A stretch of DNA of 64,000 nt, from the NCBI GenBank assembly GCA_035327665.1, contig DAOLCW010000003.1, forward strand, positions 1,216-65,215, given 5' to 3'. A model generated the notes under the pieces. It had not been told where the DNA came from and made no database searches. It saw only the letters and a program-made list of their open reading frames with translations. The position numbers were made by a program, and so were the translations under genes. This DNA comes from Kiritimatiellia bacterium (GTDB lineage: Bacteria > Verrucomicrobiota > Kiritimatiellia > CAIVKH01). Shown in pieces: positions 35,449 to 60,365 of this stretch; position 1 is the first letter of the stretch; every line of letters begins with the position of its first letter.

Positions 35449-35457
35449 CTCTGAGAC

Positions 35458-39756: not shown

Positions 39757-39946
39757 TTTCGGCCAAGCCGATGAGTGCGAACAGCTTCGTGCGCTGTTAA
39801 AGTCCTACTCCTCAGCAGACTTTGATGGCCATACCGATTTTGCCCAATTATCACCGTCACAGCGTCTAGACGCCTTGGCCAGTCTCGCGATCTTTATCAA
39901 GGAATGCAAAGGGAAGGCGGCAAAGACGAAAGACAATATGCAATAG
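39704..39946 (+). CDS. small ORF overlapping the 3' end of NTase copy 2; hypothetical partner
   Basis: 80 aa. Contains QLSPSQRLDAL, resembling ELTPEQRWRE in the small ORF next to NTase copy 3. Coding status uncertain. Confidence 0.3.
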   Translation: MNWTFGIWRNYLQTRDYDFGQADECEQLRALLKSYSSADFDGHTDFAQLSPSQRLDALASLAIFIKECKGKAAKTKDNMQ

Positions 39947-40026
39947 ACGAATGATCATAAGCAAAAGACGAAAAACTCTTGTTGCCAATTGCCCATCATC
40001 CATTGCCAATGAACTCTCTGACTACA

Positions 40027-40058
40027 GCACCAAAAACAACCTTCGGTTGTCACGGTGC
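40027..40058 (+). other. conserved leader hairpin, copy 1 (GCACC...GGTGC outer stem)
   Basis: GCACC (40027-40031) AAAAA CAACC-TTC-GGTTG (40037-40049) TCAC GGTGC (40054-40058), followed by GGGGCAAACCC. Confidence 0.55.
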
Positions 40059-40066
40059 GGGGCAAA

Positions 40067-40110
40067 CCCATAACCCGTATCTCGTATCCCGCATCCCGTA
40101 ACCCGGAACC
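40067..40110 (+). repeat. pyrimidine-rich heptamer array (CCCGTAT / CTCGTAT / CCCGCAT words) ahead of wzt
   Basis: Complement of 39055-39085. It ends 13 nt before the wzt ATG. Confidence 0.9.
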
Positions 40111-40123
40111 CGACACACGCCTT

Positions 40124-45777: not shown

Positions 45778-45779
45778 AC

Positions 45780-46014
45780 GATCGACGATGGACAAAAGAC
45801 ACAAAGCGAACGAAGACTGACGACGACGAGCGAAAGACGATGGGCTGTTCGACCTCGGACTTCTGACGACTGACTTCAGGCTTCCCATTTCCGGCTTGAT
45901 TCCTCAACCCGCATCCCCTGCACCAGAGACGGCCTGCGGCCACGGTGCAGAGCAAGCCCCGGCACCCGAATCCCATCGCGTATCCCGCATTGCGTTTCCC
46001 ACATCCCGTACATC
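45780..46014 (+). repeat. composite word-repeat spacer (GACAAAAGAC-type words, leader hairpin copy 2 at 45918-45950, CCCGTAT-type heptamers to the ATG)
   Basis: CTGCACC (45918-45924) AGAGAC GGCC-TGC-GGCC (45931-45941) AC GGTGCAG (45944-45950). The heptamer run 45964-46010 ends ...GTACATC ATG. Confidence 0.8.
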
Positions 46015-47257: not shown

Positions 47258-49054
47258 ATGGCAACGCTTGCTATGATTGCGGTGATTACCCGAGAACATG
47301 AGGGACACCAGGTTCGGGCCCGTCTTCACGAGATGGCTGACGGCTTCAACGAGTTGATTCTGGTAGATGACGGAGTTGGGGCCTCTCTTGATCCTTTGAT
47401 CAAGGATCTAACGGAATGTTATGCATGTTTACGGGTCGTGCGCTACAGGAAACCGGCATTTTACCTTGGCTCCTGGAAGCCTCTCGTCGATGAACTCACA
47501 TCCGAGTTGGTCACCTTTTTGTCGCCATGCCTGATCCTTCGTCCGGATTATTACCGCCGAACGCTTGCCGCGTTCGAGCAACATCCAGCCTGCCGTTTGG
47601 CGTTTGGTGGAATCACGAATGGGGTGTATTCGGATGAAGTTTCCCAATTCGCTGAATCGGATGTTCACCGAATCAACCGCGAAAATTTCATCGACATGAT
47701 ACTTGCAACCACGGGCGCGCAAGGTTCCACGCCCGCGACTGCTGTTTTTCGTCGGGCAGACTTCATTGAATCGGGAGGTTTCCGATGGGAACTCGCAGGA
47801 GGGCATGGTTGGCCTCCCTTTTTAATCATCGGTTTGGGCGACGGAGCCATCTATCTCGGGGATGAATGCGGGATACGCCTTGGGGAGGATTGGTTCCCGG
47901 CGGTGTATGGCGAGACGCGTCCCCTTCGCGTATTGGATGATCTGGCCCGGATGCATCATGTGGTCAATGGTTACCATGCTACGGATGCCGTCGGCAAATG
48001 GCATCAGCGGATGAAAGACGCCTATATACATCATGTCTGCGAGCAGATTCACGCTCCCGCGATTCGCGTCAATAAAACCATGGATGCACTGTATGGGCCT
48101 GGTGGGCCCCGTCGTGGTCTTCTGGTGGCGATGGCCCAGCGCATGGTGGGATTATGTCGCAGGATCTTGGCAGGACGGATGTCGGTGACCCTGTGCGGGT
48201 ACAAGCCGGATGTGGAATGTTATGGGTGGATCAAGCCATCCTTTTCGTTCGGGGTTAATTGGCGCAACTTTATCCGGTCGAAGTACAATGAAGACCGGGT
48301 CGTGATCGCTCAACAAGATCTTCTGGATTTTCTGGAGGTCAAGAATTTTTCGGGAATGCGAGTGATGGATATCGGCTGTGGCAGTGGGATTCATTCGTTG
48401 GCAGCTTTACGCGCGGGCGCTGACGAATTGGTTTCGTTTGATTATGACTCGGCTTCCGTTGAGGCGACCCGGCGGCTTTTTGAGGATGAGGGTTCCCCTT
48501 CGCGATGGACCGTTTCGCAGGGCTCCGTACTCGATCCGGAGTTTATGGGGCGTCTTGCTCCCGCAGATCTCGTGTACTCCTGGGGTGTTCTTCACCATAC
48601 CGGACAGATGTGGGAGGCGGTGAAGGCTGCTGCACAACGAATGAAGCCCGATGGACTATTGTTTATTGCGTTGTACACCAAATGGCCGGGATCGGATGAT
48701 GCGGTACGTTTGAAGATCCGCTACAATCGGGCCGGATGGTTCCGGAAGCGCTGGATGGAGATGGTTCTGATGCGGGCCGGGGTGCCGGGAATATCTTATT
48801 TGTTTAAGGACCCCGGATTTTTCCTGGATCGACTGAAAGATAAGCTGACCTTGATTCGAACCTACCGCAAATTCCGCGGAATGAGTTTCTATCATGATAT
48901 TGTGGATTGGTTGGGGGGATATCCCTACGAAGATGCGACGGTGGAAGAAGTGGTATGGTTTTGTAAAACATTCTGTGCATTGACTCCGGTCAAGGTGCGA
49001 GATCGCGGTGGAAATCTGTGCTCCTACTATCTTTTCCGGAAGGGCAAGACGTGA
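47258..49054 (+). CDS. fusion protein: N-terminal GT2-like glycosyltransferase domain and C-terminal class I SAM methyltransferase domain
   Basis: Start ATG 47258, preceded by GGAGGAGG. N-terminal IAVITREHEG...LILVDDG, C-terminal MRVMDIGCGSGIHSLAALRAGADELVSFDYD. Confidence 0.7.
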   Translation: MATLAMIAVITREHEGHQVRARLHEMADGFNELILVDDGVGASLDPLIKDLTECYACLRVVRYRKPAFYLGSWKPLVDELTSELVTFLSPCLILRPDYYRRTLAAFEQHPACRLAFGGITNGVYSDEVSQFAESDVHRINRENFIDMILATTGAQGSTPATAVFRRADFIESGGFRWELAGGHGWPPFLIIGLGDGAIYLGDECGIRLGEDWFPAVYGETRPLRVLDDLARMHHVVNGYHATDAVGKWHQRMKDAYIHHVCEQIHAPAIRVNKTMDALYGPGGPRRGLLVAMAQRMVGLCRRILAGRMSVTLCGYKPDVECYGWIKPSFSFGVNWRNFIRSKYNEDRVVIAQQDLLDFLEVKNFSGMRVMDIGCGSGIHSLAALRAGADELVSFDYDSASVEATRRLFEDEGSPSRWTVSQGSVLDPEFMGRLAPADLVYSWGVLHHTGQMWEAVKAAAQRMKPDGLLFIALYTKWPGSDDAVRLKIRYNRAGWFRKRWMEMVLMRAGVPGISYLFKDPGFFLDRLKDKLTLIRTYRKFRGMSFYHDIVDWLGGYPYEDATVEEVVWFCKTFCALTPVKVRDRGGNLCSYYLFRKGKT

Positions 49055-49164
49055 CGCAACGCGGTGTTTCACCGCGTTGCGAACGTGGCAGCCCCGTTTG
49101 GATGCGGCTCCGCCGCATCCATCACGGCCGCGAAGCGGCGGATTATTCACGTTCGTGAATAATC
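49055..49164 (+). other. three consecutive perfect palindromic hairpins directly after the stop codon
   Basis: 12-bp stem at 49055-49081 (CGCAACGCGGTG TTT CACCGCGTTGCG). 10-bp stem at 49099-49121 (TGGATGCGGC TCC GCCGCATCCA). 24-nt palindrome at 49141-49164 (GATTATTCACGTTCGTGAATAATC). None has a U-tract. Confidence 0.85.
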
Positions 49165-49222
49165 AGGGCTAACCTTCTGATCTTGTCGTGTCCTGACCCC
49201 ATAACCCTCCTTTTTCCTGATT

Positions 49223-51013
49223 ATGTGCGGATATTTGTTTTATGCCTCGGCGGCCGATGTGATCTCACGGGAGGTTTTCGACGGTTGCCGGGACTTGCTG
49301 GCCCATCGGGGGCCGGATGCCGCGCAAACCGTGTCGCTCCGGGACGGTCGGGTTCACATGGGACATCGACGGCTTTCGATTCTTGATTTATCGGATTCTG
49401 CCAACCAACCCATGCGGTTAGGGGGTCTTTGGGTTGTGTACAATGGAGAAGTCTATAACTATCCGGATTTGAAGCGGGAGCTGGAATCCCGGGGCAGTAT
49501 TTTCCATACCCACTGTGATACCGAGGTTCTGCTGCATGGCTATCAAGCATGGGGAGAAGACCTGCCGAATCACCTTGTCGGAATGTTTTCGTTTTGCATC
49601 TGGGACGATGCGAAAGGACGTCTTTTCGGCGCCCGCGATCACGCGGGCCAAAAACCGTTTTTCTACCGGTGTGACCGCCGTCGGCTCATGATTGCTTCGG
49701 AGGTCAAAGCCATTCTTCCGCTGCTTTCCACGCGACCCAAGATCAGGCGTGAATCGATCAAGGATTTCTTTGTCTTCGACGAAGTGCCCGATCCGTACAC
49801 TTGGTATGACGGGATTATGAGTCTGCCACCCGGCCACAGCCTGTCGGTGTCGGTGGGAGATGGAGTGGGGCAACCCAATCGCCGTGCCTATTGGACGTTC
49901 CGTCCGCCGGAAAAGCCGCTGCAGATCCGGTCGCGTGAAGCTATGGAACACGCGGGGGACTTGCTGGAGCGTTCGGTGAAGTTGCACCAACTGGCCGATG
50001 TCGAGGTCGGGGCGTTTCTCAGTGGTGGACTGGATAGCGCGGGAGTGGTTGCACTTGAGGCAAGCCAGCGGCAGGATCCTGTACGCACGTTCACGGTGGG
50101 GTATGTCGATGATGCGGGGGAAATTCCGCTTGCCCGTCAGGTCGCCGAACGCTGGAGGTGCCGCCATACCGAGGCCTTGTTTGACCGCCATGGGATGGAT
50201 GCCGCCTTCGACCGTTCCTTCGACCTCTTTGACAGTCCCTTTGGCGATGCATCTCAGTTTCCAACTTACGAGGTTTCGCGCCTCGCCGCCAAGGGTGTTA
50301 AAGTTGTTTTGACCGGCGATGGTGGCGACGAGGTCTTCGGGGGGTATTGGAATCTAGGGAAGTACATGGGCGGTCCTCCGTTGCGATCCTGGCGTCCGTC
50401 GGATGTGGTGAACCACATCCGACATCACGCACAGTTGCGAGCCGAATGGCAGGCAACGCTCAACTTCGGACATTCGCCGGAGCGAAGCGAGGTCGTGGAC
50501 ATGTGGCTGGGACCGGAATTAGCCGATCTGAAGGATTATGATCCGATGCCGTACTACATGGAACATTGGCTACCGGAACTCGATCCGTTCCGCCGCGCCC
50601 AGTGGTTGGATTTCAAGACCTATCTTCCCGAGGTTCTCAAAAAGGTGGACCGCTGCGCGATGGCGCACTCACTCGAGGCGCGCTGCCCGATGTTGCTACC
50701 CGAACTGGTCGAATTCGCGTTCTCGCTTCCAGTCGAAGTCAAGAATCCCGGCGGCCGCTTCAAGCACCTTTACAAAGAGTGGCTCAAGAGTCGGCGGCTG
50801 GTGCCCCTTCCGCTTTTCAAAGCCCCGAAAAAGGGCTTCGCAGTGTCCTATACCGCAGCTCGCCATATCCGCAGCGACGAAAGTAAGCTTCGCCTATTTC
50901 AGGAGGTCTGTGATGCCGGATGGTTTAACGGTAATGCGAAGCAGTCCGTAAACGAACACTGGGGACGCCTCTGGCGCTTCGCCCTGATCAGCCGGGCGTT
51001 GATGGAGAGCTGA
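49223..51013 (+). CDS. asnB: asparagine synthase (glutamine-hydrolysing) family amidotransferase
   Basis: 596 aa. N-terminal MCG nucleophile, HRRLSILD, YNGEVYNY, and SGGLDS PP-loop. Confidence 0.9.
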   Translation: MCGYLFYASAADVISREVFDGCRDLLAHRGPDAAQTVSLRDGRVHMGHRRLSILDLSDSANQPMRLGGLWVVYNGEVYNYPDLKRELESRGSIFHTHCDTEVLLHGYQAWGEDLPNHLVGMFSFCIWDDAKGRLFGARDHAGQKPFFYRCDRRRLMIASEVKAILPLLSTRPKIRRESIKDFFVFDEVPDPYTWYDGIMSLPPGHSLSVSVGDGVGQPNRRAYWTFRPPEKPLQIRSREAMEHAGDLLERSVKLHQLADVEVGAFLSGGLDSAGVVALEASQRQDPVRTFTVGYVDDAGEIPLARQVAERWRCRHTEALFDRHGMDAAFDRSFDLFDSPFGDASQFPTYEVSRLAAKGVKVVLTGDGGDEVFGGYWNLGKYMGGPPLRSWRPSDVVNHIRHHAQLRAEWQATLNFGHSPERSEVVDMWLGPELADLKDYDPMPYYMEHWLPELDPFRRAQWLDFKTYLPEVLKKVDRCAMAHSLEARCPMLLPELVEFAFSLPVEVKNPGGRFKHLYKEWLKSRRLVPLPLFKAPKKGFAVSYTAARHIRSDESKLRLFQEVCDAGWFNGNAKQSVNEHWGRLWRFALISRALMES

Positions 51014-51513
51014 AGACGGAGGAGCGCAGACGAAAGAAAGACTGAAGACGGAGGATGGTTGTCGATAAAGTTTACGACAAAGCTTCCGACAAAGATGGGA
51101 AATGGGGAACAAGGTAGCAAGGTTGCAAGGGTTCAGGGGAAGTGATTCAGTATCCCAAACTTTGTGTTGAACTTAATCCTGTTGCGGTATGGGGGACAAA
51201 GTATGACCGAATACGAGTAGACGACGTGTGACCACGTTGCCACCTTGCACCCTTGTTACCCTGCACCCTTTTCACCTATGCTTCGCTCCGAAGACGGAGC
51301 TTCCACCGTTGACCTCCGGGCTATGGCGGACAAGACGCAGGGCAAGCCAAGAACCAAGCACCAAACACTCGTATCCCCAGCACCAGAGACTCCCTTCGGT
51401 CGTCGCGGTGCGGGGCAGGCCCGAATCCCGTATCCCGCAACCCGCATCCCGTATCTCGTAACCCGAATCCCGTATCCCGCATCTCGTATCCCGTATCTCG
51501 CATCCCGCCCCCC
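51014..51513 (+). repeat. dispersed composite intergenic element, copy 1 (full length)
   Basis: Order along the element: CGACAAAG words, purine octamer arm (51095-51140), unique core (51141-51235), pyrimidine arm (51236-51272). Then GCTCCG-AAGA-CGGAGC hairpin, 24-mer 51321-51344, leader hairpin 51380-51411, and 12 heptamers (51427-51510) up to the ATG. Confidence 0.85.
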
Positions 51514-52929
51514 ATGCTGTTTAATTCCATCGATTTTGTTTTGTTTTTTGCCGTCGTGTACGGCCTGTACCTGGTCTTGCGGCATCGGGCACAAAACTGG
51601 CTGCTGCTGGGGGCCAGCTATTTCTTCTACGGATGCTGGGACTGGCGGTTTCTTTCCCTTATCCTGATTTCCACCCTGGTGGACTACGTTTGCGGGTTAA
51701 AGATCCATGAAGCGACGCGCCCGGGAACACGGCGAGGATTTCTGGTCCTCAGCATGGTCAGCAACCTGGGGTTGCTGTTCTTTTTTAAATATTTCGGTTT
51801 TTTCGCGGAAAGCGCCCAGGTTTTGTTCCAGCGCCTGGGTATGGAGTTGGACTGGGTAACCCTGCACTTTGTGCTGCCCGTCGGCATCTCGTTTTATACG
51901 TTTCAGACCATGAGCTACACGATCGATATCTATCGCCGTGAGCTCAAGCCGACCCGCGACCTGCTCGACTTTGCCGTTTTTGTCGCGTTTTTCCCTCAAT
52001 TGGTGGCGGGGCCGATTGAGCGGGCCCGGCACTTGCTTCCTCAGGTTCAACTGCGGAGGGTTCTCACCTATCCCATGATTCGCGAAGGTTGCTGGCTGAT
52101 CCTGTTGGGATACTTCAAAAAAGTGGTGATCGCGGACAACATGGCCCCCCTGGTGGCCACGGTGTTCGATCATCCCGACCAGGCCTACGGGTTGTCCATT
52201 CTTGCTGCAACGGTGGCGTTTGCCTTTCAGATTTACGGGGATTTTTCCGGGTACACCGATATTGCCCGGGGAATCAGCAAGTTGATGGGTTTCGACATCA
52301 TGCTCAATTTCCGCATGCCGTACTTTGCCTTGAATCCCCAGGACTTTTGGAAGCGGTGGCATATCAGCCTGTCCACCTGGCTGCGCGATTATTTGTACAT
52401 CCCGTTGGGGGGCAACCGGGGCGGGACCGTCTTCACCTATCGTAATTTAACCTTAACCATGTTGTTGGGGGGACTGTGGCATGGCGCGGCCTGGCATTTT
52501 GTCGCGTGGGGGGCCTACCATGGGCTGTTGTTGGTCGGCCATCGTCTCCTCCTGCCCATCTTGTCCCTGATCCAGCCCACATCGCTGATCGGGCAGCGTG
52601 TCTGGCATTGGGTTCGTCTTACCGGTTTCTTCGGGTTGACCTGTTTCGGGTGGATGTTGTTCCGGGTTGAGTCGTTGGCCGATGTCCCGGTTTTGCTTTC
52701 CAACATCGTTCAGCCCTTTGCCTGGAATGGAAAGGTTGCCATGTTGACCATGGCGTGTCTTTTGCCACCGCTGCTGATTCTGGATTATTGGCAGGAAAAG
52801 ACCGGGGATTTGCTGGTGGTGAAGCGCTGGCCCGCGCCGGTGCGCCTAGCCACCTATGCTACCTTGTTCGCGTTCATTGTGATGACAGGCTGGGTGGAGC
52901 GTATTGAGTTCATCTATTTCCAGTTCTGA
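51514..52929 (+). CDS. MBOAT-family membrane O-acyltransferase (AlgI/DltB-like)
   Basis: 471 aa. WHISLSTWLRDYLYIPLGGNR with the catalytic His, plus GGLWHGA. Confidence 0.9.
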   Translation: MLFNSIDFVLFFAVVYGLYLVLRHRAQNWLLLGASYFFYGCWDWRFLSLILISTLVDYVCGLKIHEATRPGTRRGFLVLSMVSNLGLLFFFKYFGFFAESAQVLFQRLGMELDWVTLHFVLPVGISFYTFQTMSYTIDIYRRELKPTRDLLDFAVFVAFFPQLVAGPIERARHLLPQVQLRRVLTYPMIREGCWLILLGYFKKVVIADNMAPLVATVFDHPDQAYGLSILAATVAFAFQIYGDFSGYTDIARGISKLMGFDIMLNFRMPYFALNPQDFWKRWHISLSTWLRDYLYIPLGGNRGGTVFTYRNLTLTMLLGGLWHGAAWHFVAWGAYHGLLLVGHRLLLPILSLIQPTSLIGQRVWHWVRLTGFFGLTCFGWMLFRVESLADVPVLLSNIVQPFAWNGKVAMLTMACLLPPLLILDYWQEKTGDLLVVKRWPAPVRLATYATLFAFIVMTGWVERIEFIYFQF

Positions 52930-52984
52930 TGTGAAGGGATAAAGACGGAATCTCGCGCGGTAACCGCGAAACAAACGTCCTATT

Positions 52985-53500
52985 TTCAACACGGAGTGCA
53001 CGGAGGACACGGAGAAAGACAGAATGAAATCCTCTCCGTGGTCTCTGTGTTCTTCAGCGAAGCGGATGGTAGAATAAAGTTCAGATACGAAGACTTCCGA
53101 AGATCCGCATTGAAACAATGTTTTTCACCACGGAGTGCACGAAGGACGCGGAGAAAAAACAGAATGAAATCCTCTCCGTGGTCTCTGTGTTCTCCAGCGA
53201 AGCGGGTGGTAGAATCAAATTCCGATACGAAGACTTCCGAAGATCCGTATTGAAAAGATATTCTCCACCACGGAGTGCAAGGGGGACACGGAGAAAAAAC
53301 AGAATAAAATCCTCTCCGTGGGCTCTGTGTTCTCCAGCGAAGCGGGTGGTAGAATAAAGTTCCGATACGAAGACTTCCGAAGATCCGTATTGAAAAGATA
53401 TTATTTACCACGGAGTGCAAGGGGGACACGGAGAAAAAGCAGAATAAAATCCTCTTCGTGGTCTCTGTGCCCTCCAGCGAAGCGGGTGGTAGAATTAAGA
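52985..53500 (+). repeat. tandem array of about 3.7 units of a 139-140 bp repeat, each unit containing a long hairpin
   Basis: ACGGAGTGCA anchors at 52991, 53130, 53270 and 53410. In unit 1, CACGGAGA (53008-53015) pairs with TCTCCGTG (53033-53040), extendable with G-U pairs. Confidence 0.9.
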
Positions 53501-53541
53501 TGTCTTCCAAAGGTACTGAAACCTGGCGTTAAACCTCTCTC

Positions 53542-54618
53542 ATGATCACCCTCGATTTGTATAAAGCCTACACCGGCCTGCCCCTGCGAACCCATGTATG
53601 GCATGGCCTTCTCGTGTTTACCGGTTTGTGCATCCTGGTTGGGGGTTCGTATGTGCTCCGGCGCTCCGGTGGTTCTGAATCCATTGTTGGACCTCCTTAC
53701 ATGTCTTTGGTGGACGACCAACTCGAAGTCATCTATGCCGGAACCTCCCATATCGGGTATGGGATTGATCCGAGAATCTACAGCCTGCGGGGAATGAACG
53801 TCTCCGCCGGTGCACTGAATTATGAATTAATGGAAAAGGTGATTGCCAGGTATCTCAACCGGGCGCCCAACCTCCGGCTTTTGGTTCTGGAGGCGGGCAT
53901 TGTCCCGCTTCGGGTCGATACCATGGCACGATTGGACGGCGATTACCAAAGTTTGTACCGTCTCGGTCTTGATTTGTCTGATCTCCCCCTGCCTTTTTAC
54001 CGGAAAGCGATGCAAGGCCTCAAGGAGTCATGGATCTTGTACCCGATTTACTTCATGGACCGTTGGTCACCCTCGATATGGGTCTGGGGTCGAAGACGAC
54101 TGGGCAGTGAAGGGGAAGGTCGCGTGGACACCCGGGGACACACGACTCTGGACCGGGTAATTTCGTCTCGAAACGATGGACGGGTGGTGGTTGCGCACCA
54201 TCAGGCTGACCATCTTGCTATGGATCATTCACCGGTTAATCTTCCCGCGCTGATCCGGATGCTGGACATGGCTGAACAGCGCCGACTACCGGTGCTGTTT
54301 TTGCGTATGCCTCACCATGCCAGCTATGTCGAACATCGGCCTGCCGAATGGGAGGCTCATGTGCAGGCTATGCTGACCGAGGTGTTGACAACCGTTAGGC
54401 CAGGAAGCGTCACCTATTTGGATTGGGAGCAGGGAATGATCTATATGGATGCCCATTTTGCCGATGGGGATCATCTAAACCGGGAGGGGGTTATAGCCCT
54501 TCGGGATGCACTTGATCCCGTTCTTCTCAGCATGGTCTCTTCGGCTCATCCAGAGGATTCGCCCTACCCGATTCACGGCGCACCGGTTGATCGTGAAAAA
54601 GCGATGGCTTTGCCGTGA
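53542..54618 (+). CDS. membrane-anchored hypothetical protein, possible SGNH/DUF1574-like partner of the MBOAT enzyme
   Basis: 358 aa. N-terminal TM, YAGTSHIGYG and FADGDHLNREG blocks reminiscent of SGNH blocks I and V. Assignment is weak. Confidence 0.5.
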   Translation: MITLDLYKAYTGLPLRTHVWHGLLVFTGLCILVGGSYVLRRSGGSESIVGPPYMSLVDDQLEVIYAGTSHIGYGIDPRIYSLRGMNVSAGALNYELMEKVIARYLNRAPNLRLLVLEAGIVPLRVDTMARLDGDYQSLYRLGLDLSDLPLPFYRKAMQGLKESWILYPIYFMDRWSPSIWVWGRRRLGSEGEGRVDTRGHTTLDRVISSRNDGRVVVAHHQADHLAMDHSPVNLPALIRMLDMAEQRRLPVLFLRMPHHASYVEHRPAEWEAHVQAMLTEVLTTVRPGSVTYLDWEQGMIYMDAHFADGDHLNREGVIALRDALDPVLLSMVSSAHPEDSPYPIHGAPVDREKAMALP

Positions 54619-54730
54619 GGCACTCTTTGGAAATGGATGGTCCGGGTGTACGAGGATGGAACATGGAGGGTGCGACCTCGCTCACCTACGCCTACACCCC
54701 AATCTCTCTGGTTGCGGATGAACGAGACGT

Positions 54731-55345
54731 TTGGTTGTGATTAAATCTCTACAAGCTTTCCGGGGATCATGGGGGCGCACCCTTTTATTTTCTTTGGGTT
54801 TACGCACGCGCCGGGTTCGCTTATATCCCGGGGTCCACGCCTCATGGTCACGCAACGCCTCGGTCATCGGGGATGGCAGGCTCGATCTGGGGATCCCATG
54901 GCCGGGACTTCCTTGCCGAACCGGGGAAATCCGGTTGGGGGAGCAATCCACGCTGGAGCTTCAAGGGGGAATGACCCTGTATACCGATTTCCATCTTTCG
55001 ATTTCACCGGGGGCACGGGTCTTCCTGGGCAGCGGATACATCAATAGCGGACTGCGATTGGATTGCTACGAGTCCATCCGTATCGGTTTCAGTGTCGCCA
55101 TTGGCCCCGAAGTAATCATCCGGGACAGTGACAATCATTCCCTGGATGACAAACCGTTGACCGCGCCGGTGGTGATCGGAGATCATGTGTGGATCGGGGC
55201 CAGAGCGATGATTCTGAAAGGGGTAACCATCGGTGATGGCGCGGTGATCGCCGCCGGTGCGGTGGTGACCCGGAATATTCCCCCCGGTGCCCTCGCCACC
55301 GGTGTCCCCGCCCGGGTTATTCGCGAAGACGTCCACTGGAGCTGA
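54731..55345 (+). CDS. hexapeptide-repeat (left-handed beta-helix) sugar O-acetyltransferase
   Basis: IGDHVWIGARAMILKGVTIGDGAVIAAGAVVTRNIPPGALATGVPARVI. Only non-ATG starts are available (TTG 54731 or GTG 54737) after an in-frame TGA at 54719. Confidence 0.75.
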   Translation: MVVIKSLQAFRGSWGRTLLFSLGLRTRRVRLYPGVHASWSRNASVIGDGRLDLGIPWPGLPCRTGEIRLGEQSTLELQGGMTLYTDFHLSISPGARVFLGSGYINSGLRLDCYESIRIGFSVAIGPEVIIRDSDNHSLDDKPLTAPVVIGDHVWIGARAMILKGVTIGDGAVIAAGAVVTRNIPPGALATGVPARVIREDVHWS

Positions 55346-55355
55346 ATCTCCCGTC

Positions 55356-55390
55356 AAGCACGAAGCACGAAGCACAAAACACGAAGCACC
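55356..55390 (+). repeat. CACGAAG heptamer run abutting the next start codon
   Basis: AAGCACGAAGCACGAAGCACAAAACACGAAGCACCATC then the ATG at 55394. Confidence 0.85.
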
Positions 55391-55393
55391 ATC

Positions 55394-56752
55394 ATGCATA
55401 TCGTCCTCGCCACCCTTGAATATCCTACCGAGTCCTACCGGGCGGGCGGTATGGGGTGGGCCTTCTTCAAGATCGCCCAGGGACTCAGGCAGCGCGGGCA
55501 CGCAGTGAGTGTGCTGGTGCGATCCGATCGGAAGGAGACCTTCACCGATGCGCTGGGCATCGTGGTCCGGCGTTATCCCGTACGGGCCTATTTGCCCAAG
55601 CGTCTGCAAACTGCCCTGGCCTGGCGGTTTCCTCTGGGCGCCATGGCGTACGATGAAGCCAGATCCCTGTATGACGCACTCGACGAGGTCGCGCGGGAAA
55701 CCTCGTTCGATGTCGTATTGGCCGCCGCTGCCCCCGACTCCTATTTTGCCGCCGGGTCCGGACGCTGGCCGTACGTCTGCCGGATTTCCTCCCATCGACT
55801 GTTGATTGTCATCAGTAACCTCTTCCCGGTTGGCCCGGGGTTTCTGTTCGAGGAATGGATGAAGGTCGCCGCATGCCGCCATGCCCATGGACGATTTGCG
55901 CCCTCCAACTTGCTCGCCGGCATTTTTGCTTCCCTGGGCTGTGGAGCGACCCGCCGCATTCTGACGCCCATGGAGTTGACGGAGCCGGTAGCTCAGTTGG
56001 AGGACGCCCCCACCCGCTACCTGCTTTTTTACGGGAGCCTTCAAGGCACCAAAGGCGCCCACCTACTGGCGGATGCGCTAGTCAGGGTGCTTGAGCATTA
56101 TTCAGACGTGCACATGGTCTGGATTGGCCGCGATCTCGTCGCCCCGGATTTTGGGAGCATTACGGAGTATGTTCGTCATTGTCTTGCTCCCTTCGCGGAG
56201 CGGGTGCGAATCCTCGGTGTACTTGAGCAGCCTGAGGCGCTTCGATGGGTGATGAACGCGGATTGGGTGCTATTTCCCTCTATCATGGACAATCTGCCCA
56301 ATGCGCTTCTTGAGGCGATGTGGTTCTCACGACCGGTGATAGTTACACGAGAATCGGGGGTGGACGAGTTGATCGAAGACCAACGGAATGGATTGGTTAT
56401 TGATCGAAATGATGTGACTGCCTTGATCGAGGGTTTGGAGCGTGCCCTGACAATGGGTCCGGAGGCGCGTGAGCGGCTCGGGCGGGAGGCGCGTCGTACG
56501 GTACTGGAAAAATGCAATCCAAGCCGTTCGGCAGAGGGGGTCGAATCGCTTCTCGTGGAGGTTGTGGAGCGCCACGGGCGAATTCGCCGCGCTGACATCC
56601 GTACAGCGGCCCGTATGTTTTGGCTCAAGGCCCAGTGGGGTGGGCGGGTGGCACGGATTCTACGCATCCCGGTGTCCGCAGCGGATCGGCGGAAGGTTCG
56701 CGAGCTGGGCCGCCGGTATCTACCCGGAGTTCCGCTACGATTTGCAAAATGA
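55394..56752 (+). CDS. glycosyltransferase family 4 (GT-B)
   Basis: 452 aa. FPSIMDNLPNALLEAMWFSRPVIVT. Confidence 0.85.
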   Translation: MHIVLATLEYPTESYRAGGMGWAFFKIAQGLRQRGHAVSVLVRSDRKETFTDALGIVVRRYPVRAYLPKRLQTALAWRFPLGAMAYDEARSLYDALDEVARETSFDVVLAAAAPDSYFAAGSGRWPYVCRISSHRLLIVISNLFPVGPGFLFEEWMKVAACRHAHGRFAPSNLLAGIFASLGCGATRRILTPMELTEPVAQLEDAPTRYLLFYGSLQGTKGAHLLADALVRVLEHYSDVHMVWIGRDLVAPDFGSITEYVRHCLAPFAERVRILGVLEQPEALRWVMNADWVLFPSIMDNLPNALLEAMWFSRPVIVTRESGVDELIEDQRNGLVIDRNDVTALIEGLERALTMGPEARERLGREARRTVLEKCNPSRSAEGVESLLVEVVERHGRIRRADIRTAARMFWLKAQWGGRVARILRIPVSAADRRKVRELGRRYLPGVPLRFAK

Positions 56753-57807
56753 TGAGTTTCGGGCAAACCGAGCAAATGCCAAGCATTTCAGTGGTAATGG
56801 CCACGCACAACGGCGAGCGATACCTGTCGCAGGCATTAGACAGCATGGCGGCCCAAACCTACACGAACTGGGAGTGGGTGCTGGTGGATGATGGCTCCAC
56901 TGACAACTCGCCAGAGATCCTCACCCTGTTTCGAAAACGATTTCCAGGACGCGTACACGTTCTTCGCAATGAGCAGAACCGGGGGTTGACCGCGTCGTTG
57001 AACCGGGGACTCTCCGTTGCCCGGGGACAGTTTATTGCCCGGATGGATGATGATGACCTTGCTCACCCCGAGCGTTTGGCCCGACAAGTCGAGGCGATGA
57101 TCAAGGATCCGGATGTATTGCTTCTTGGTACAGCTGCTAACCGGCTAGACGAGAAAACCGGCTCAACATCGCCGTTCATGGCATGCTTCGATTCCGTCCG
57201 ACTCCGGATCAATTTGTGCTGGTTTAATCCAATCATGCATGCCTCGGTGATGTTCCGGCGTCTCGCTCCCGACGGATCGCCCTTCCGGTACAATGAAGGG
57301 TTTACCACCGCCCAGGATTATGAGTTATGGACCCGGATGAGCGGGATGGGGAAGCTCGCCGTTTTGGACATCCCGCTCATGACCCATCGTTTGCGAGCCA
57401 AAAGTATCACCGGCTCTCGCCGCCAACATCAATTGGACATGACCCGCGAGGTCAGCGAAGCCTACACCTCCCGCTTGCTGGGGGACGGTCCACTTGCCGC
57501 CAGTTCCCCGGGCGATTTGCGAGAGTGGATCGATGACCGTTCTCTTCCTGATATCCTGCGGCTAAAACGGGTGCGCGACCTGTTTCGTGTCGTGTCGGAT
57601 GTACCCTGGTTGGGCCGGTCGGCTGGCCAGCAGGCTTTTGCATGTTGGGCCGAGGCGTTGCTGGAGGGTCAACGGTGGACCGATTTGTGGATGGGGGATG
57701 CCGGTCGGCTCCTTCGGGCTTGCGGATGGGCGGGAGCGGGCTATCTGGTCCGCCGGGCGGGGAGGAGGGCGATGGTCGATGGACAAAAGACAATGGCCGA
57801 TGGGTGA
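56749..57807 (+). CDS. glycosyltransferase family 2
   Basis: Start ATG 56749 (ATGATGA overlap with the upstream stop). ISVVMATHNGERYLSQALDSMAAQTYTNWEWVLVDDGSTD, ARMDDDD. Confidence 0.85.
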   Translation: MMSFGQTEQMPSISVVMATHNGERYLSQALDSMAAQTYTNWEWVLVDDGSTDNSPEILTLFRKRFPGRVHVLRNEQNRGLTASLNRGLSVARGQFIARMDDDDLAHPERLARQVEAMIKDPDVLLLGTAANRLDEKTGSTSPFMACFDSVRLRINLCWFNPIMHASVMFRRLAPDGSPFRYNEGFTTAQDYELWTRMSGMGKLAVLDIPLMTHRLRAKSITGSRRQHQLDMTREVSEAYTSRLLGDGPLAASSPGDLREWIDDRSLPDILRLKRVRDLFRVVSDVPWLGRSAGQQAFACWAEALLEGQRWTDLWMGDAGRLLRACGWAGAGYLVRRAGRRAMVDGQKTMADG

Positions 57808-57859
57808 TGGACAGATTAGTTCGGGCGAACCCTCTGGGTGAGCCGCTAGGCAATCGTCG

Positions 57860-58230
57860 ATAGGCGATAGGCTATAGACGGATCAGGGATGTCGACAAGG
57901 CTTGCGACAAAGCTACCGACAAAGATGGGAATGGGGGGACAAGGTAGCAAGGTCGCAGGGGTACAGGGGGAGTGACTGCGTTTCCCAAACGTTGTGTTGA
58001 ATGTAGTCCTGAACAGTGTAGGCGACTACGTGTGACCAGCGTGTTCCCTTGCCACCTTGCTCCCTTGTTACCCTTCCCCCTTTTCACCCATGCTTCGCTC
58101 CGCGGACGGAGCTTCCGCCGTCGTCCGGCGGATGCCGGACTATGGCGGACAAGACGCAGGGCAGGCAAAGCACGAAGCACTCTTATCCCGTATCCCGCAT
58201 CTCGGATCTCGTATCCCGTCGCCGCACAAA
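57860..58230 (+). repeat. dispersed composite intergenic element, copy 2
   Basis: Colinear with 51061-51440. Shared anchors include CCGACAAAGATGGGA, CCCAAAC(T/G)TTGTGTTGAA, ATGCTTCGCTCCG. The 24-mer CTATGGCGGACAAGACGCAGGGCA is identical at 58140-58163 and 51321-51344. Confidence 0.85.
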
Positions 58231-58407
58231 CGACCCTCGCTTCTTTCTGATTGAGCCTTGCCGCTTCGCGAAGTACAGTTTCGTGCGTGAAATTTCCATG
58301 GATTGAAAGTGATGAGTGGCGGAGCTGGTACGAGTTAACGCCTGAGCAGCGCTGGCGTGAAAGTGAAAAACTGCGCGCATATTTTTTAGCTGCGGGAGGT
58401 TCCCTGA

Positions 58408-59136
58408 ATGCCGAACCCGATACTCAAAGTCCTTTCCACGTTAAACGACCACGAGGTAAAGTATTTGCTCATGGGGGGGCAGGCGTGCGTCTATTACGGC
58501 GCGGCGGAGTTTAGCCGCGATACCGATGTGGCGCTTTTATAAAGCCGGGAAAATGTTGAGCGCCTGAAGGATGCGCTCCGTGTGTTGCAGGCGAAAGTCA
58601 TTGCGGTTCCCCCCATGGACGTGTCTCTGCTGGAAAAAGGGCATGCTATCCATTTCCGATGCAACCATCCTGATGCGGAGGGCATGCGTTTGGATGTCAT
58701 GTCGGTGATGCGAAACCTGCCCGGGTTCGACACGTTATGGCGGCGAAGAACGACTGCGGAAGTCGAGGGCCATACCATCGAATTGTTGTCGCTTCCGGAT
58801 TTGATCACCGCGAAAAAAACCCAGCGCGACAAGGATTTGCCCATGATCAGGAGACTCGTGGAAGCCCATTATGTGAATTTTGCCGCGGAGCCCACGGTTG
58901 AGCGGGAGGACTTTTGGTTGCGTGAATGCCGTACGCCGGACTTATTGCGTGATCTGGTAAGGTTATTTCCTGGATCGATTCATCGGGTCGAAAAGGCGAG
59001 GCCTTTTCTTGCATCGATTGCATCCATGACCGAGGAAGACATCGAAAAGGCTTTGTTTGAGGAAGAAGCGCACGAGCGGGCAAGCGATAAAGCCTATTGG
59101 AAGCCCTTGCGGGACGAATTGGAGCAGATTCGGTAA
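58408..59136 (+). pseudogene. minimal nucleotidyltransferase-fold gene, cassette copy 3, interrupted by one in-frame TAA (58540-58542)
   Basis: ATG 58408 gives MPNPILKVLSTLNDHEVKYLLMGGQACVYYGAAEFSRDTDVALL, then TAA. The same frame continues SRENVERLKDAL... into track ORF 58582..59136. Overlapping upstream ORF 58251/58287..58514 encodes WYELTPEQRWRESEKL. Confidence 0.6.
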
Positions 59137-59149
59137 GGTTGGTAGGTGT

Positions 59150-59470
59150 TGGGTGAAAGACAGAAGACGAAAGACAATAGACGGATCAGGGATGTCGACA
59201 AAGCTTGCGACAAAGCTCCCGACAAAGATGGGAAATGGGGGACAAGACGCAGGGCAAGCCCTTCGACAAGCTTCCTCCTTCGTCCGGCAGTTGCCGGACT
59301 ACGGCGGACTGATCGCAGGGTAAACCAAGCACGAAGCACCCACCTTCGCCGAGGCTACGGCGGGCAGGCCAAGCACGCGGCGAAGTCGCATCCCGAATCT
59401 CGCACCTGTCCTGCGAAGCCTCGGCGAAGCAGGATCCCGCATCCCGTAACCCGCCACACCCGATCTACTT
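59150..59470 (+). repeat. dispersed composite intergenic element, copy 3 (internally deleted), plus a 13-bp inverted repeat
   Basis: TAGACGGATCAGGGATGTCGACAA is shared with copy 2. GGGGGACAAG is joined directly to ACGCAGGGCAAGCC (59237-59260). CTTCGCCGAGGCT (59344-59356) pairs with AGCCTCGGCGAAG (59417-59429). Confidence 0.8.
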
Positions 59471-59502
59471 GACAACTTGTCACGATACCGTAGCGTGCAC
59501 CT

Positions 59503-59736
59503 ATGAAAACGCTATCCGTAGGGAAGTTTAAATCTGAATTTTCCAAGATCCTGGAAAGTGTGGCCAAGGGTAATCCGGTGGCCATTTCGTACGGTCGAAA
59601 GCATGCGCCGGTGGCCATGATGATCCCGTATCCGCAAAAGGCCGGAGAACGCAAGCTGGGTGTCATGGAGGGGCGCGCAGGTTATGCATGGAAAGAGGAT
59701 GGGAAAATCAGCGATGAAGAACTTCTCCGATCATGA
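59503..59736 (+). CDS. type II antitoxin (Phd/YefM-like)
   Basis: 77 aa. MKTLSVGKFKSEFSKILESVAKGNPVAISYGRK.... Its stop overlaps the toxin ATG as ATGA. Confidence 0.7.
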   Translation: MKTLSVGKFKSEFSKILESVAKGNPVAISYGRKHAPVAMMIPYPQKAGERKLGVMEGRAGYAWKEDGKISDEELLRS

Positions 59737-60137
59737 ATCTCCTGCTCGATAGCCATTCCTTGATCTGGGCCGTGTGTGATGCGAAATAATTTCCGCGGGA
59801 CGTGTTCGCCGAACTGAAAAAGCCATCGAATGCGGTGTTCATCAGCGCGGTATGCTTGTGGGAAATTTCCCTGAAGTTTGCCCTTGGCAAGCTGAGCCTC
59901 GATCAAATTACCCCCGATGCCTTGCGCCTCTCCGCGGTTGACATGGGTTTTGCGTTGATGCCTTTGCTGCCGGAAGAAGCCTCCGGTTTCGACAACTTAC
60001 CTCGATCCGGTCACAAGGATTCGTTTGACCGGATGCTGGTGTGGCAGGCCATTCACAACAAGCATCAGTTCGTGTCCTGCGATGCCGCGCTGGATGTTTA
60101 CAAGGTACAAGGCCTGAAGCGCTTTTGGCCGGAGTAA
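59733..60137 (+). pseudogene. vapC: PIN-domain VapC toxin gene interrupted by one in-frame TAA (59787-59789)
   Basis: ATG 59733 gives MNLLLDSHSLIWAVCDAK, then TAA. The same frame continues FPRDVFAELKK...SAVCLWEISLKFALGKL...HKDSFDRMLVWQA...SCD, so all PIN acidic positions are present. Confidence 0.75.
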
Positions 60138-60283
60138 GTGCGATGGGCGAAGGACGGATGACAATAGACGATAGACCATGGCCGATGGACGAGAGGCCGA
60201 ATAATGGGTCAATCGTTCTGATGAATCTCGTTTGCCCAACAACCAGTCGTTGACGATAGCAAGAAAAGCTGCTCTACCGGCCA

Positions 60284-60365
60284 TTCCCGTAACCCGTATC
60301 CCCCATATCCCGAATCCAGAATCCCGCATCCCGTATCTCGCATCTCGTAACCCGTATCCCGCATC
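60284..60365 (+). repeat. pyrimidine-rich CCCGTAT-type heptamer array running to the start codon
   Basis: ...AACCCGT ATCCCCC .. ATCCCGA ATCCAGA ATCCCGC ATCCCGT ATCTCGC ATCTCGT AACCCGT ATCCCGC ATC, then the ATG at 60366. Confidence 0.9.

Follow-up and report, generated by a model that had tools for sequence, protein, structure and literature searches.

The polysaccharide operon analysed here raises the question of what three long and partly alike spacers are doing between its genes. The window (a stretch of 64,000 nt, numbered from its first position) comes from an uncultured PVC bacterium of activated sludge, probably a member of the Kiritimatiellia. A first-pass annotation took the spacers, which sit in the variable half of the one-directional operon, to be three copies of one dispersed composite element (51014-51513, 57860-58230 and 59150-59470). 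Our analysis favors, by a clear but not commanding measure of confidence, paralogous insertions of a mosaic repeat carrying an IVS-like foldback that is tolerated in an antiterminated operon. All features described below lie on the forward strand.

The three copies are real and paralogous, with blastn similarities far beyond chance. Copies 1 and 2 gave a single gapped alignment of 323 columns with 76.8% identity (E 6.5e-67). Copy 3, which has a 5' module and a 3' module in common with the other copies, matched copy 2 over 82 nt at 90% (E 2e-27) and over 71 nt at 82% (E 2e-14). Every word quoted in the earlier annotation was found in its place: the exact 24-mer CTATGGCGGACAAGACGCAGGGCA at 51321-51344 (copy 1) and 58140-58163 (copy 2), the hairpin ATGCTTCGCTCCG-N4-CGGAGCTTCC at 51278-51304 and 58090-58116, TCCCAAAC(T/G)TTGTGTTGAA at 51153-51171 and 57983-58001, and (G/T)ACGTGTGACCA at 51223-51234 and 58027-58038. 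Copies 2 and 3 share TAGACGGATCAGGGATGTCGACAA exactly (57875-57898 and 59178-59201). The copies are non-coding, as had been proposed, and lie between non-homologous genes. Unrelated bacteria carry word arrays of the same heptamer family, and the arrays of the two arms described below have a common consensus but a different order of word variants, as might be expected if independent slippage had produced look-alike arrays by low-complexity drift alone. However, the colinear similarity of copies 1 and 2 crosses non-repetitive parts, exact 24-mers are common to copies, and module order is identical in all three. We give drift next to no credence: for the three copies it is refuted by the blastn similarity.

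Copy 1 begins directly 3' of the AsnB stop codon (51011-51013) with purine-rich AGAC-type words (51014-51059), recognized from the sequence and from an RR purine profile at the spacer start. These are followed by an array of 12-nt words (GTCGATAAAGTT / TACGACAAAGCT / TCCGACAAAGAT) ending in ATGGGA (51060-51100), which TRF reports with period 12 and 2.7 copies at 51063-51094. The GACAAAG words of the element form a 12-nt tandem unit, CGACAAAGCTNN x3 by TRF, and the 12-nt word motif of copy 1 is also present in Lentisphaerota MAGs. Then come a purine octamer arm of GGnnnCAA words (51101-51141), a non-repetitive loop or "core" delimited by sequence comparison (51142-51236), and a pyrimidine octamer arm of TTGnnnCC words (51237-51277; repeat comparison and fold), the two arms being the 5' and 3' strands of a long stem in the predicted fold. 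Beyond the arms lie the 6-bp hairpin GCTCCG-AAGA-CGGAGC (51278-51304), module X (51305-51349, …CTATGGCGGACAAGACGCAGGGCAAGCC), a GCACC…GGTGC hairpin followed by GGGGCAGGCCC (51378-51422, a direct repeat in the window), and 12.6 units of a CCCGTAT-type heptamer array (51420-51513, TRF) that reaches the MBOAT ATG at 51514. Module X is a CCnCC/GGCGG stem enclosing a variable insert, with the tail GCrGrGCArrCC. The inner stem of the GCACC…GGTGC hairpin shows compensatory differences at two other sites (40025-40069 and 45925-45959).

Copy 2 consists of purine words (TAGGCGA / TAGACGG; 57847-57889), three 12-nt words and ATGGGA (57890-57930; TRF for both), a purine octamer arm (57931-57971; fold), a loop (57972-58041; sequence comparison), a pyrimidine octamer arm (58042-58089; repeat comparison and fold), the hairpin GCTCCG-CGGA-CGGAGC followed by a module X with the inner hairpin GTCCGGC-GGAT-GCCGGAC (58090-58168), and AAGCACG words leading into about five CCCGTAT heptamers (58169-58222; TRF). 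In copy 3, purine AGAC words, three 12-nt words and ATGGGA (59150-59233; blastn and TRF) run into a junction at which the first word of the purine arm meets the 3' part of module X (59234-59260; blastn). The remainder (59261-59455) holds a second module X at 59269-59339, AAGCACG words, an inverted pair of X type at 59344-59368 / 59405-59429 and, at 59430-59455, a few heptamers in a short array.

The direct junction of copy 3, GGGGGACAAG|ACGCAGGGCAAGCC at 59237-59260, was confirmed, and it coincides with the point at which two blastn matches to copy 1 abut (51036-51113 and 51323-51348). An internal stretch is missing there, as had been noted, although its size is 210-221 nt rather than about 230; the foldback, the hairpin and the 5' part of X are what is absent. 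In copies 1 and 2 this stretch is bounded by two 12-nt near-repeats, ATGG(G/C)G(A/G)ACAAG, and the junction fits a deletion between these repeats flanking the hairpin, which bears out the proposal that the elements rearrange at their own short words. The same near-repeats (ATGGnGrACAAG), which flank foldback and hairpin in copies 1 and 2 and are single in copy 3, could be read as a target duplication, with copy 3 as the empty site, on the view that the element is a MITE (miniature inverted-repeat transposable element) moved in trans by a transposase from another locus of the genome. The inverted arms, the lineage-specific insertion and the assembly breaks at repeats would agree with such a MITE. 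However, the arms are internal to the composite rather than terminal and are tandem word arrays of variable length without defined terminal repeats, the "duplication" is imperfect (10/12) and overlaps one of the arm's own words, and there are only about three copies. Moreover, a transposase was noticed neither in the window nor in 10 kb beyond it (the Pfam scan covered the genes around the repeats), and the full-length relative of the element carries a 141-aa four-helix-bundle protein, which is not a known transposase. Mobilisation of this kind seems distinctly improbable; neither a target duplication nor a mobilising enzyme was identified for the elements.

The purine and pyrimidine octamer arms of copies 1 and 2 are mutually complementary, with predicted stems of 28-34 bp and a loop of about 100 nt. 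This pairing, to which the first-pass annotation did not refer, follows from both arms being built of complementary consensus words. Copy 1 is predicted to form 28 long-range pairs (51097-51130 with 51243-51276; fold z -2.4) and copy 2 to form 34 (57925-57964 with 58043-58091; fold z -6.9, none of 200 shuffles being equally stable). As the pairing register is not the same in the two copies, there is no position-by-position covariation that would prove selection for the stem. The AGAC-type purine words and the CCCGTAT heptamers of one spacer are not complementary to each other, and hence not every array is half of a stem.

The loop had been described as a unique conserved core. It is indeed common to two or three copies here, but it is not conserved beyond this genome: it is absent from relatives, the gene-less elements of relatives have different loops, and core and 5' module at a fixed distance were not found in JGI metagenomes. 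The similarity of the core therefore reflects recent common descent rather than a conserved functional core. The loop of copy 1 has only a 19-mer and an 11-mer in common with copy 2, and it showed no similarity to PF05635 genes and no match in Rfam. The conservation of these two words might suggest that the core encodes a small RNA of its own, a riboswitch or a small peptide, the last also because both copies have a 16-codon ORF that opens at the ATG of GACAAAGATGGG and closes at a shared TGA (MGNGEQGSKVARVQGK and MGMGGQGSKVAGVQGE). However, Rfam gave no match with E values of up to 5 allowed, the loops differ by a 15-nt indel, many substitutions and their predicted structures, and the gene-less foldbacks of a relative have unrelated loops. 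The ORF has four non-synonymous versus two synonymous differences, lies in the purine arm rather than the core and lacks a Shine-Dalgarno sequence. We therefore rate an RNA or peptide encoded by the core as very improbable.

The foldback at the centre of copies 1 and 2 corresponds, without the gene, to a hairpin element found here and in many other bacteria, in which a PF05635 gene lies between two inverted arrays of short words. Within the same window (34950-35600), a purine octamer arm (34950-34995), a PF05635 gene (35023-35448; Pfam E 4.5e-32, TIGR02436) and a long pyrimidine octamer arm (35455-35600) precede the Wzy ATG at 35612, and these arms pair too, as seen by folding and as inverted repeats. 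PF05635 is the 23S rRNA IVS protein; the gene here encodes the 141-aa four-helix-bundle protein. The enclosure of this gene, 16 kb upstream, by the same arms was absent from the earlier annotation. Three relatives (L011, L014 and L016) have the same arm-gene-arm layout, with PF05635 proteins of 79-85% identity at syntenic loci.

This layout is common in metagenomes: a PF05635 gene has an inverted tandem array of 7-9-nt words on either side, and the purine-rich array is the upstream one. Cognate flanks of metagenomic PF05635 loci outpaired non-cognate flanks (Mann-Whitney p 2.7e-5), and 16 of 70 loci exceeded the non-cognate first percentile of flank pairing; none of the 20 top loci tested was located in rRNA. 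After de-duplication to 58 non-redundant loci, 33 (57%) were strongly inverted (at least ten inverted 7-mers common to the flanks), as compared with 1 of 15 neighbouring ORFs and 5.9% of non-cognate pairs. TRF found arrays of period 5-12 in one flank or more at 54 of the 58 loci and in both flanks at 36, the consensus words being reverse-complementary in 20 loci and same-strand in 4. The purine-up, pyrimidine-down polarity prevailed at 33 loci versus 4 (Wilcoxon p 9e-10, computed before de-duplication). Note that in the small neighbouring-ORF control (n=15) a looser threshold was passed by 7 of 15, which indicates that word arrays are a property of these regions and not only of PF05635 genes.

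The nearest known parallel is the 23S rRNA IVS with an S23p/PF05635 ORF, found in Coxiella and Leptospira, which has the same protein family. The Coxiella IVS is 428 nt long with a 28-bp stem and the S23p ORF in its loop, and is cut by RNase III; such an insert is tolerated because RNase III removes the stem from the RNA (PMC4990558). The elements share with it an ORF in the loop, complementary borders, a stem of about 28 bp and a sporadic, lineage-specific distribution, and the ORF-less IVSs of Salmonella and Yersinia (about 100 nt) are counterparts of the gene-less foldbacks. In contrast to IVSs, which interrupt rRNA, the elements occupy spacers in the presumed mRNA of a polysaccharide operon, have arms of tandem 7-9-nt words with purine/pyrimidine polarity and form part of a mosaic that includes further repeat modules.

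That mosaic is also why the notion of one composite unit that spreads had to be given up. The "element" is a mosaic of about ten independently distributed modules, each of which is also found by itself elsewhere among the operon's spacers; at least seven additional spacers of the window contain single modules. A solitary 12-nt GACAAAG array, a variant ending in ACATGA, lies at 33346-33383 (TRF). The spacer at 60141-60365 holds only end modules, ATAGACG-type purine heptamers and a CCCGTAT array reaching the ATG at 60366 (blastn, TRF), and that at 45772-46014 has purine words, a GCACC-type hairpin with GCAGAGCAAGCC, and heptamers reaching the ATG at 46015 (blastn). Around a nucleotidyltransferase cassette (39054-40112; inverted repeats, TRF), ACGGGAT words directly 3' of a stop codon (39054-39087) are complementary to a CCCGTAT array (40067-40112). 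Contig depth gave estimates of about 8 copies for the GACAAAG module, about 10 for heptamer arrays, about 3 for arm plus left core and 2 for the 24-mer; in the third arm-plus-core copy a heptamer array takes the place of the GACAAAG module. The composite is thus low-copy, with about three core-bearing copies genome-wide and about 8-10 copies of the modules each. Similar heptamer arrays in unrelated Pseudoalteromonas and Burkholderia replicons show that these can arise independently.

Modular repeats of this general kind are known. E. coli BIME/REP and pneumococcal BOX consist of few short modules varying in number and order, lie between genes of one operon, are co-transcribed and form stem-loops. 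As in these, copy number here belongs to the module and not to the composite, but there is no sequence relation, most modules here consist of very short words in tandem and the copy number of the composite is very low. Cyanobacterial STRRs are tandem imperfect heptamer arrays in non-coding DNA that also occur in RNase P RNA, where the insertion forms an extended helix; they belong to a different phylum and use different words, and they are not known to be associated with PF05635 genes or with inverted pairing on both sides of a gene. Drosophila foldback transposons, which are eukaryotic and transposase-dependent, have long inverted arms of short tandem sub-repeats in variable number and a variable or absent middle, an analogy in architecture only.

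The AsnB-MBOAT spacer measures 500 nt here versus 9, 86 and 6 nt in three relatives. Because the orthologous junction is so short, copy 1 is an insertion gained in this lineage. Further spacers are likewise inflated (612 versus 175/168/11, 237 versus 33/-4/44 and 168 versus 12/50 nt). These lengths bear on whether the copies are expression cassettes, that is, promoter, operator, leader or terminator modules under selection for driving the gene downstream and insulating it, with the 12-nt GACAAAG array as an array of protein-binding sites and the C-rich heptamers as a Shine-Dalgarno-free translation leader. Orientation with the genes is strict, with purine words after stop codons and G-poor arrays ending exactly at the ATGs of MBOAT, GT genes and Wzy. 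Several Lentisphaerota MAGs retain GACAAAG x3 plus ATGGG, frequently ahead of genes, and another species has module X, conserved at 22/24 positions, at a site that is not orthologous (L011:1470). Yet in relatives the same gene pairs are expressed across spacers of 6-86 nt from which all these modules are missing, sigma-70-like promoters and intrinsic terminators are lacking inside the copies (counts equal those of shuffles), and the genuine promoters seen in the locus, which precede MarR and Phd, fall outside the repeat modules. We consider selected cassettes unlikely, if still the most credible of the alternatives.

Under the preferred reading, a tolerated foldback within a mosaic repeat, the vocabulary comprises purine-rich word arrays after stop codons, the 12-nt array, the foldback (in which a loop separates a purine-octamer arm from its pyrimidine-octamer complement), two or three small hairpin modules with GCrGrGCArrCC ends, and G-poor heptamer arrays reaching the next ATG. 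Elements were gained in this lineage where relatives have 6-86 nt between the genes, and modules were shuffled and deleted at short words in common, as at the copy 3 junction and in the relative L011, in which a nucleotidyltransferase gene is truncated at a purine arm. They are probably co-transcribed with the operon, in which an UpxY/RfaH-like NusG paralogue, a putative antiterminator, is encoded at 31152-31691. The arms can form the predicted 28-34 bp duplexes and loop the insert out; the stem may thereby render it harmless and, by analogy with rRNA IVSs and Correia elements, probably serves as an RNase III-type processing site. Processing would give the downstream cistron an unstructured C/U-rich leader. 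Correia elements bind RNase III and are either cut or protected, with changed expression of neighbouring genes (PMC2649163). Like these Neisseria CREE/NEMIS, the elements here are small, inverted-repeat and intergenic, with co-transcription the likely state, whereas the 26-nt terminal repeats, conserved core, TA target duplication and hundreds of copies of CREE were not seen. Spread and rearrangement may have proceeded by recombination or slippage between word arrays, without a dedicated transposase.

Alignment with MAFFT, a repeat finder (families D9, D10, D11 and D16) and blastn concordantly placed the composite intergenic repeat at three sites, 51014-51513 (copy 1), 57860-58230 (copy 2) and 59150-59470 (copy 3), and every word quoted in the first-pass annotation was located at its coordinates. 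Copies 1 and 2 are colinear over 323 columns with 76.8% identity (blastn, E 6.5e-67), and copy 3 matches copy 2 in a 5' part (82 nt, 90%, E 2e-27) and a 3' module (71 nt, 82%, E 2e-14). Although similar heptamer arrays arise in unrelated bacteria, the notion that the copies are products of pure low-complexity drift is refuted for these three by the blastn homology; the first-pass annotation had already taken the conserved core to argue against drift. The internal deletion that it described in copy 3 is real but smaller than thought. The segments of copy 3 that match copy 1 (51036-51113 and 51323-51348) abut at 59235-59246, and therefore 210-221 nt are missing there rather than ~230 nt. In copies 1 and 2 this stretch is bordered by 12-nt near-repeats, ATGG(G/C)G(A/G)ACAAG. 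These imperfect repeats (ATGGnGrACAAG) bracket the foldback plus hairpin and overlap an arm word; deletion and shuffling have taken place at the words.

The foldback of copies 1 and 2 consists of a purine octamer arm, a loop (the core) and a pyrimidine octamer arm. Long-range arm pairs number 28 in copy 1, where the stem joins 51097-51130 to 51243-51276, and 34 in copy 2, where it joins 57925-57964 to 58043-58091. Relative to shuffled sequences the fold is far more stable in copy 2 (z -6.9) and less so in copy 1 (z -2.4). Note that the pairing register slides between the two copies and that position-by-position covariation is not usable. A border of complementary sequences able to form a long stem is also a mark of the intervening sequences (IVSs) of 23S rRNA. 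In contrast to IVSs, which are inserted in a 23S rRNA helix, the copies are flanked by protein-coding genes and the window contains no rRNA. Both arm types also enclose, at 34950-35600, a gene (35023-35448) for a 141-aa protein of the IVS family PF05635/TIGR02436, and these arms pair as well, so that the copies are kin to PF05635-bearing elements. The sole PDB relative of the protein is the uncharacterised XCC0516 (2GSC). In related genomes (protein 79-85% identical) the gene is found at the same site between MarR and Wzy, with a purine-octamer arm ahead of it and, behind it, a long pyrimidine-octamer arm reaching to the Wzy ATG. Downstream of MarR lies an invariant 23-mer, CGGGACGCGACGGGGACGAAGTC (34091-34135; L011:8655, L014:9908 and L016:9907 in the relatives), followed by a hairpin that differs in sequence from genome to genome, is self-complementary (GCCGCCGCC…, CGGCGCTCCG…, TGTCTGCCC…) and abuts the purine arm.

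The loops of copies 1-3 lack the similarity to PF05635 that is present at 34950-35600; ORF-less IVSs are also known. Descent of the core from a PF05635 gene was considered and rejected, as blastn-short and blastx searches turned up no similarity to any of 120 homologues. That the core might instead function as an RNA or encode a peptide is not supported: besides the loops without PF05635 similarity, Rfam 15 gave no family in the copies at gathering score in a search of the whole window and nothing credible at E up to 5 in 33.2-40.2 and 50.9-60.5 kb. Moreover, the pattern CAAAGATGGG-N45-65-CCCAAACNTTGTG, which sets the core at its fixed distance from the 5' module, had zero matches in JGI metagenomes.

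Metagenomic loci encoding relatives of the PF05635 protein were fetched (80 loci, 58 after de-duplication). The 20 best of these loci carried no rRNA. The upstream and downstream flanks of a gene pair with one another more strongly than do non-cognate flanks (median -106 vs -89 kcal/mol, p 2.7e-5), and 16 of 70 loci lie past the first percentile of non-cognate pairing. The flanks are inverted tandem arrays of short words, and the word differs from locus to locus: CACGTTG upstream and CAACGTG downstream in L025, GGTTCAA and TTGAACC in L095, GTTACAGA and CTGTAAC in L065, CGTTAAAAT and TTTTAACG in L052, CCTCAGT and GGACTGA in L096, and GACTAAGAC and TTAGTCGTC in L047. Arrays of period 5-12, mostly 7, 8 or 9, were found in a flank of 54 of the 58 loci and in both flanks of 36. 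Within this set the consensus words of the two flanks were reverse-complementary at 20 loci and on the same strand at 4, and at least 10 inverted 7-mers were common to both flanks at 33/58 loci, against 1/15 neighbouring-ORF controls and 5.9% of non-cognate pairs. The upstream arm was purine-richer at 33 loci and the reverse held at 4 (Wilcoxon p 9e-10, before de-duplication). Read from the flanks, the two arms have the word in common but not the order of its variants. Most PF05635 homologues sit on contigs of 0.5-2 kb, which fits assemblies breaking at the flanking repeat arrays.

We tentatively consider that PF05635 genes bracketed by inverted tandem arrays of 7-9-nt words could be foldback cassettes of a kind that is widespread in bacteria and so far undescribed, although we would not put this at even odds. 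The classical rRNA IVSs would be only those members that landed in rRNA. Some active process would make or maintain the arrays, in which the word is specific to the locus and the same in both arms and the purine-rich arm lies upstream. Copies 1 and 2 would count as gene-less, non-autonomous members, and the remaining modules would belong to this system as further parts. Candidate routes to such arrays would be binding of the words by the four-helix-bundle protein encoded between them, or repeat synthesis on a template with subsequent fold-back copying.

The first-pass annotation treated the repeat as a single composite unit. Instead, TRF and the repeat finder showed a mosaic, with the same modules occurring singly in at least seven further spacers between 33 and 61 kb. 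The CCCGTAT-type heptamer arrays at 40067-40112, 45974-46010 and 60285-60365 each run precisely to an ATG, and the complementary ACGGGAT form (39054-39087) directly follows a stop codon. Octamers of the purine type are located at 34135-34210 and 34960-34994 and those of the pyrimidine type at 35460-35600; AAGCACG heptamers lie at 55356-55389, and a solitary array of the 12-nt word CGACAAAGCTNN at 33346. A GCACC…GGTGC hairpin followed by GCrGrGCArrCC, with compensatory changes in the inner stems, is found at 40025, 45925 and 51378. AGAC-type purine words stand directly 3' of several stop codons, and typically a spacer runs from purine-rich at its 5' end to pyrimidine-rich at its 3' end. Copy number was estimated by aligning source-metagenome contigs on copy 2 at 80% likeness, with a genome depth of ~44x. 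Depth indicated ~8 copies of the GACAAAG module and ~10 of the heptamers, but only ~3 of the purine arm plus left core and only 2 of the 24-mer common to copies 1 and 2. The further copies sought in the genome came to about one more arm-plus-core copy, whose left neighbour is a heptamer array in place of the GACAAAG module, and no additional composite was present in the 10 kb beyond the window.

Three units of CGACAAAGCTNN ending in ATGGG stand at 33346-33383, 51063-51100, 57893-57930 and 59196-59233, and also in L001-L007. Several Victivallales/Lentisphaerales MAGs have a nearly identical array between unrelated flanks, and a scan of GTDB representatives, among which the genome of the window is not included, found the GACAAAG module at 7 loci, all in Lentisphaerota MAGs. 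Neither the closer relatives nor the 80 PF05635 loci had the array. One MAG carries it within a larger repeat located at the ends of contigs, and in L005 a CAGAAGG/CCTTCTG foldback contains it as an inverted pair. A 16-codon ORF starts from the ATG of the array in copies 1 and 2.

A mosaic of modules in intergenic sites of an operon is also the mark of REP/BIME elements, in which a 35-40-nt imperfect palindrome has a conserved GTAG/CTAC head and a linked RAYT transposase. The small hairpin module 3' of the foldback (module X), which adjoins CTA(C/T)GGCGG, differs in layout from E. coli REP. Its CGCC/GGCG stem is invariant, and covariation is therefore uninformative. The type-a form has a 22/24 match at a non-orthologous site in relative L011, and an X-like module (CCTTCGCC…GGCTAYGGCGGGCAGGC) occurs in some foreign PF05635 loci (L062, as an inverted pair, and L056). 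MITEs and Correia-like elements have terminal inverted repeats at their ends, target-site duplications and many dispersed copies. A MITE does not fit here, as the arms are internal with further shared modules on both sides, clean ends are lacking and the number of arm-plus-core copies is low.

All genes of the window are on the + strand. From ~24.8 kb they form a surface-polysaccharide locus with export and initiation genes, MarR, Wzy, a Wzt-type ABC transporter, several glycosyltransferases, AsnB and MBOAT; the DNA came from an activated-sludge metagenome, and its closest named homologues are Kiritimatiellia and 'Verrucomicrobia' MAGs. The spacers of relatives are far shorter. The AsnB stop lies 500 nt from the MBOAT start in the window, against 9 nt in L018, 86 nt in L020 and 6 nt in L019 (in which a different gene precedes MBOAT), the MBOAT proteins being 81%, 75% and 75% identical to that of the window, respectively. 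MBOAT to the next gene is 612 nt (175, 168 and 11 nt in relatives), GDSL lipase to glycosyltransferase 237 nt (33, -4 and 44 nt) and methyltransferase to AsnB 168 nt (12 and 50 nt). Judged from these junctions, the copies are insertions gained in this lineage. Filled and empty AsnB-MBOAT junctions have no duplication in common. Copies 2 and 3 sit after GT2, at a junction of variable content among genomes, and flank a disrupted nucleotidyltransferase gene plus a toxin-antitoxin pair. The relatives follow the same grammar with a different vocabulary. In L011, stops are followed by ACGAAAT-type words and ATGs are preceded by the complementary ATTTCGT; GTCT words are present too, and a gene-less octamer foldback stands in front of the MarR promoter. 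In L018, AAGCACG heptamers precede ATGs, and CGTGCTT is found 5' of a PF05635 fragment. Also in L011, a nucleotidyltransferase gene is cut off at a purine arm with only its first ~33 codons kept, which resembles the copy 3 deletion.

The view that the copies are expression cassettes is weakened by the tiny spacers of relatives and by a promoter/terminator scan of 50-61 kb, which found no sites within the copies and counts equal to those of shuffles. It may still hold for single modules, above all for GACAAAG x3 plus ATGGG, which is kept in Lentisphaerota MAGs. An apparent sigma-54 promoter (GG-N10-GC) in the octamer arm was dismissed, since any GGnnGCAA array yields that spacing.

Small accessory cassettes lie between the genes: three nucleotidyltransferase-partner pairs, a Phd/PIN toxin-antitoxin and the PF05635 gene. 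The three pairs are paralogous (PF14907/AbiEii-like with weak DUF2204 similarity, plus a short downstream partner; 34235-34950, 39250-39925 and 58251-59136) and are bracketed by word arrays between biosynthetic genes; a stop near 58540 interrupts the third. In the region 59456-60137, the Phd/YefM-type antitoxin (59503-59736) precedes a PIN-like toxin whose frame is broken after 18 codons by a TAA near 59787 and continues as ORF 59802-60137. A TTGACA box within the palindrome TTGACAACTTGTCA upstream of the antitoxin is likely an autoregulated promoter/operator. Because small toxin-antitoxin and nucleotidyltransferase cassettes sit between repeats, an integron was considered. Integron cassette arrays are marked by an integrase and by attC sites with a GTTRRRY core. 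The repeats here are arrays of words, and among the genes of the window no integrase came to notice.

Spread and rearrangement most likely proceeded through the shared words acting as microhomology; neither an enzyme nor a target duplication came to light. The spacers would be co-transcribed within the long operon, with its UpxY-like factor helping polymerase through the hairpins. This NusG paralogue (31152-31691) has UpxY and RfaH antiterminators as best matches, below curated cut-offs, and a similar paralogue lies within the polysaccharide operon of relatives L014 and L016. The stem would loop out the insert and would be a likely RNase III substrate; the Coxiella IVS (428 nt, a 28-bp stem with the S23p ORF in the loop; PMC4990558) and Correia elements (PMC2649163) are so processed. 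Cleavage would then separate the cistrons and leave the downstream gene a G-poor, unstructured leader. A look-up of RNA-seq runs for the window listed none. Very thin soil metatranscriptome contigs (93-96% identity) covered the MarR end, purine arm and PF05635 ORF of relative L021, whereas the pyrimidine arm and everything beyond it had zero coverage, at very low depth.

Separately, IVSs with inverted ends, heptamer arrays and intergenic repeats of mosaic make-up are already known. In the literature we found no account of PF05635 genes flanked by word arrays or of such repeats in Kiritimatiellia/Lentisphaerae, and no description of non-rRNA PF05635 genes between inverted tandem word arrays of fixed purine/pyrimidine polarity or of gene-less derivatives filling operon spacers. 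If the cassette reading is true, rRNA would be just one of the places where a broader kind of hairpin element lands, operon spacers being another, and this would give a testable handle on IVS origin and movement and on what PF05635 proteins, the very common 'four helix bundle' family, do. In practice, word arrays cause short-read assemblies to break, lengthen the spacers of surface-polysaccharide loci and provide microhomology for cassette gain, loss and shuffling where the cell surface is determined.

Phage collections gave no match to the repeats, and plasmid collections matched only the heptamer array, in unrelated bacteria. The same heptamer family occurs in unannotated intergenic DNA of two unrelated Proteobacteria, as ~300 nt of CTCGCAC/CTCGTAT/CCCGCAT in a Pseudoalteromonas donghaensis plasmid (L103 2500-2800) and as a perfect array of CCCGAAT, over a dozen units long, in a Burkholderia plasmid (L102 2500-2600). 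The sole gathering-score Rfam match in the window, Aggregatibacter sRNA 22 (41.4 vs 39.8 bits; 49046-49180, methyltransferase-to-AsnB spacer), covers three consecutive perfect hairpins (CGCAACGCGGTG…, GGATGCGGC… and ATTATTCACG…) and is probably a chance match to hairpin-rich sequence. The MBOAT-to-next-gene spacer is filled by a 140-nt unit present 3.7 times with 91% matches (52983-53499), each with the motif CCAGCGAAGCGGGTGG and with a hairpin in which a purine strand on the 5' side (CACGGAGA) faces a pyrimidine strand on the 3' side (TCTCCGTG); the motif is an inverted pair in the orthologous spacer of relative L018 (L018:11440-11600). Two very large ORFs of 1687 and 3081 aa (7130-12193 and 14946-24191) have internal repeats, such as one of 132-nt period at 11579-12111.
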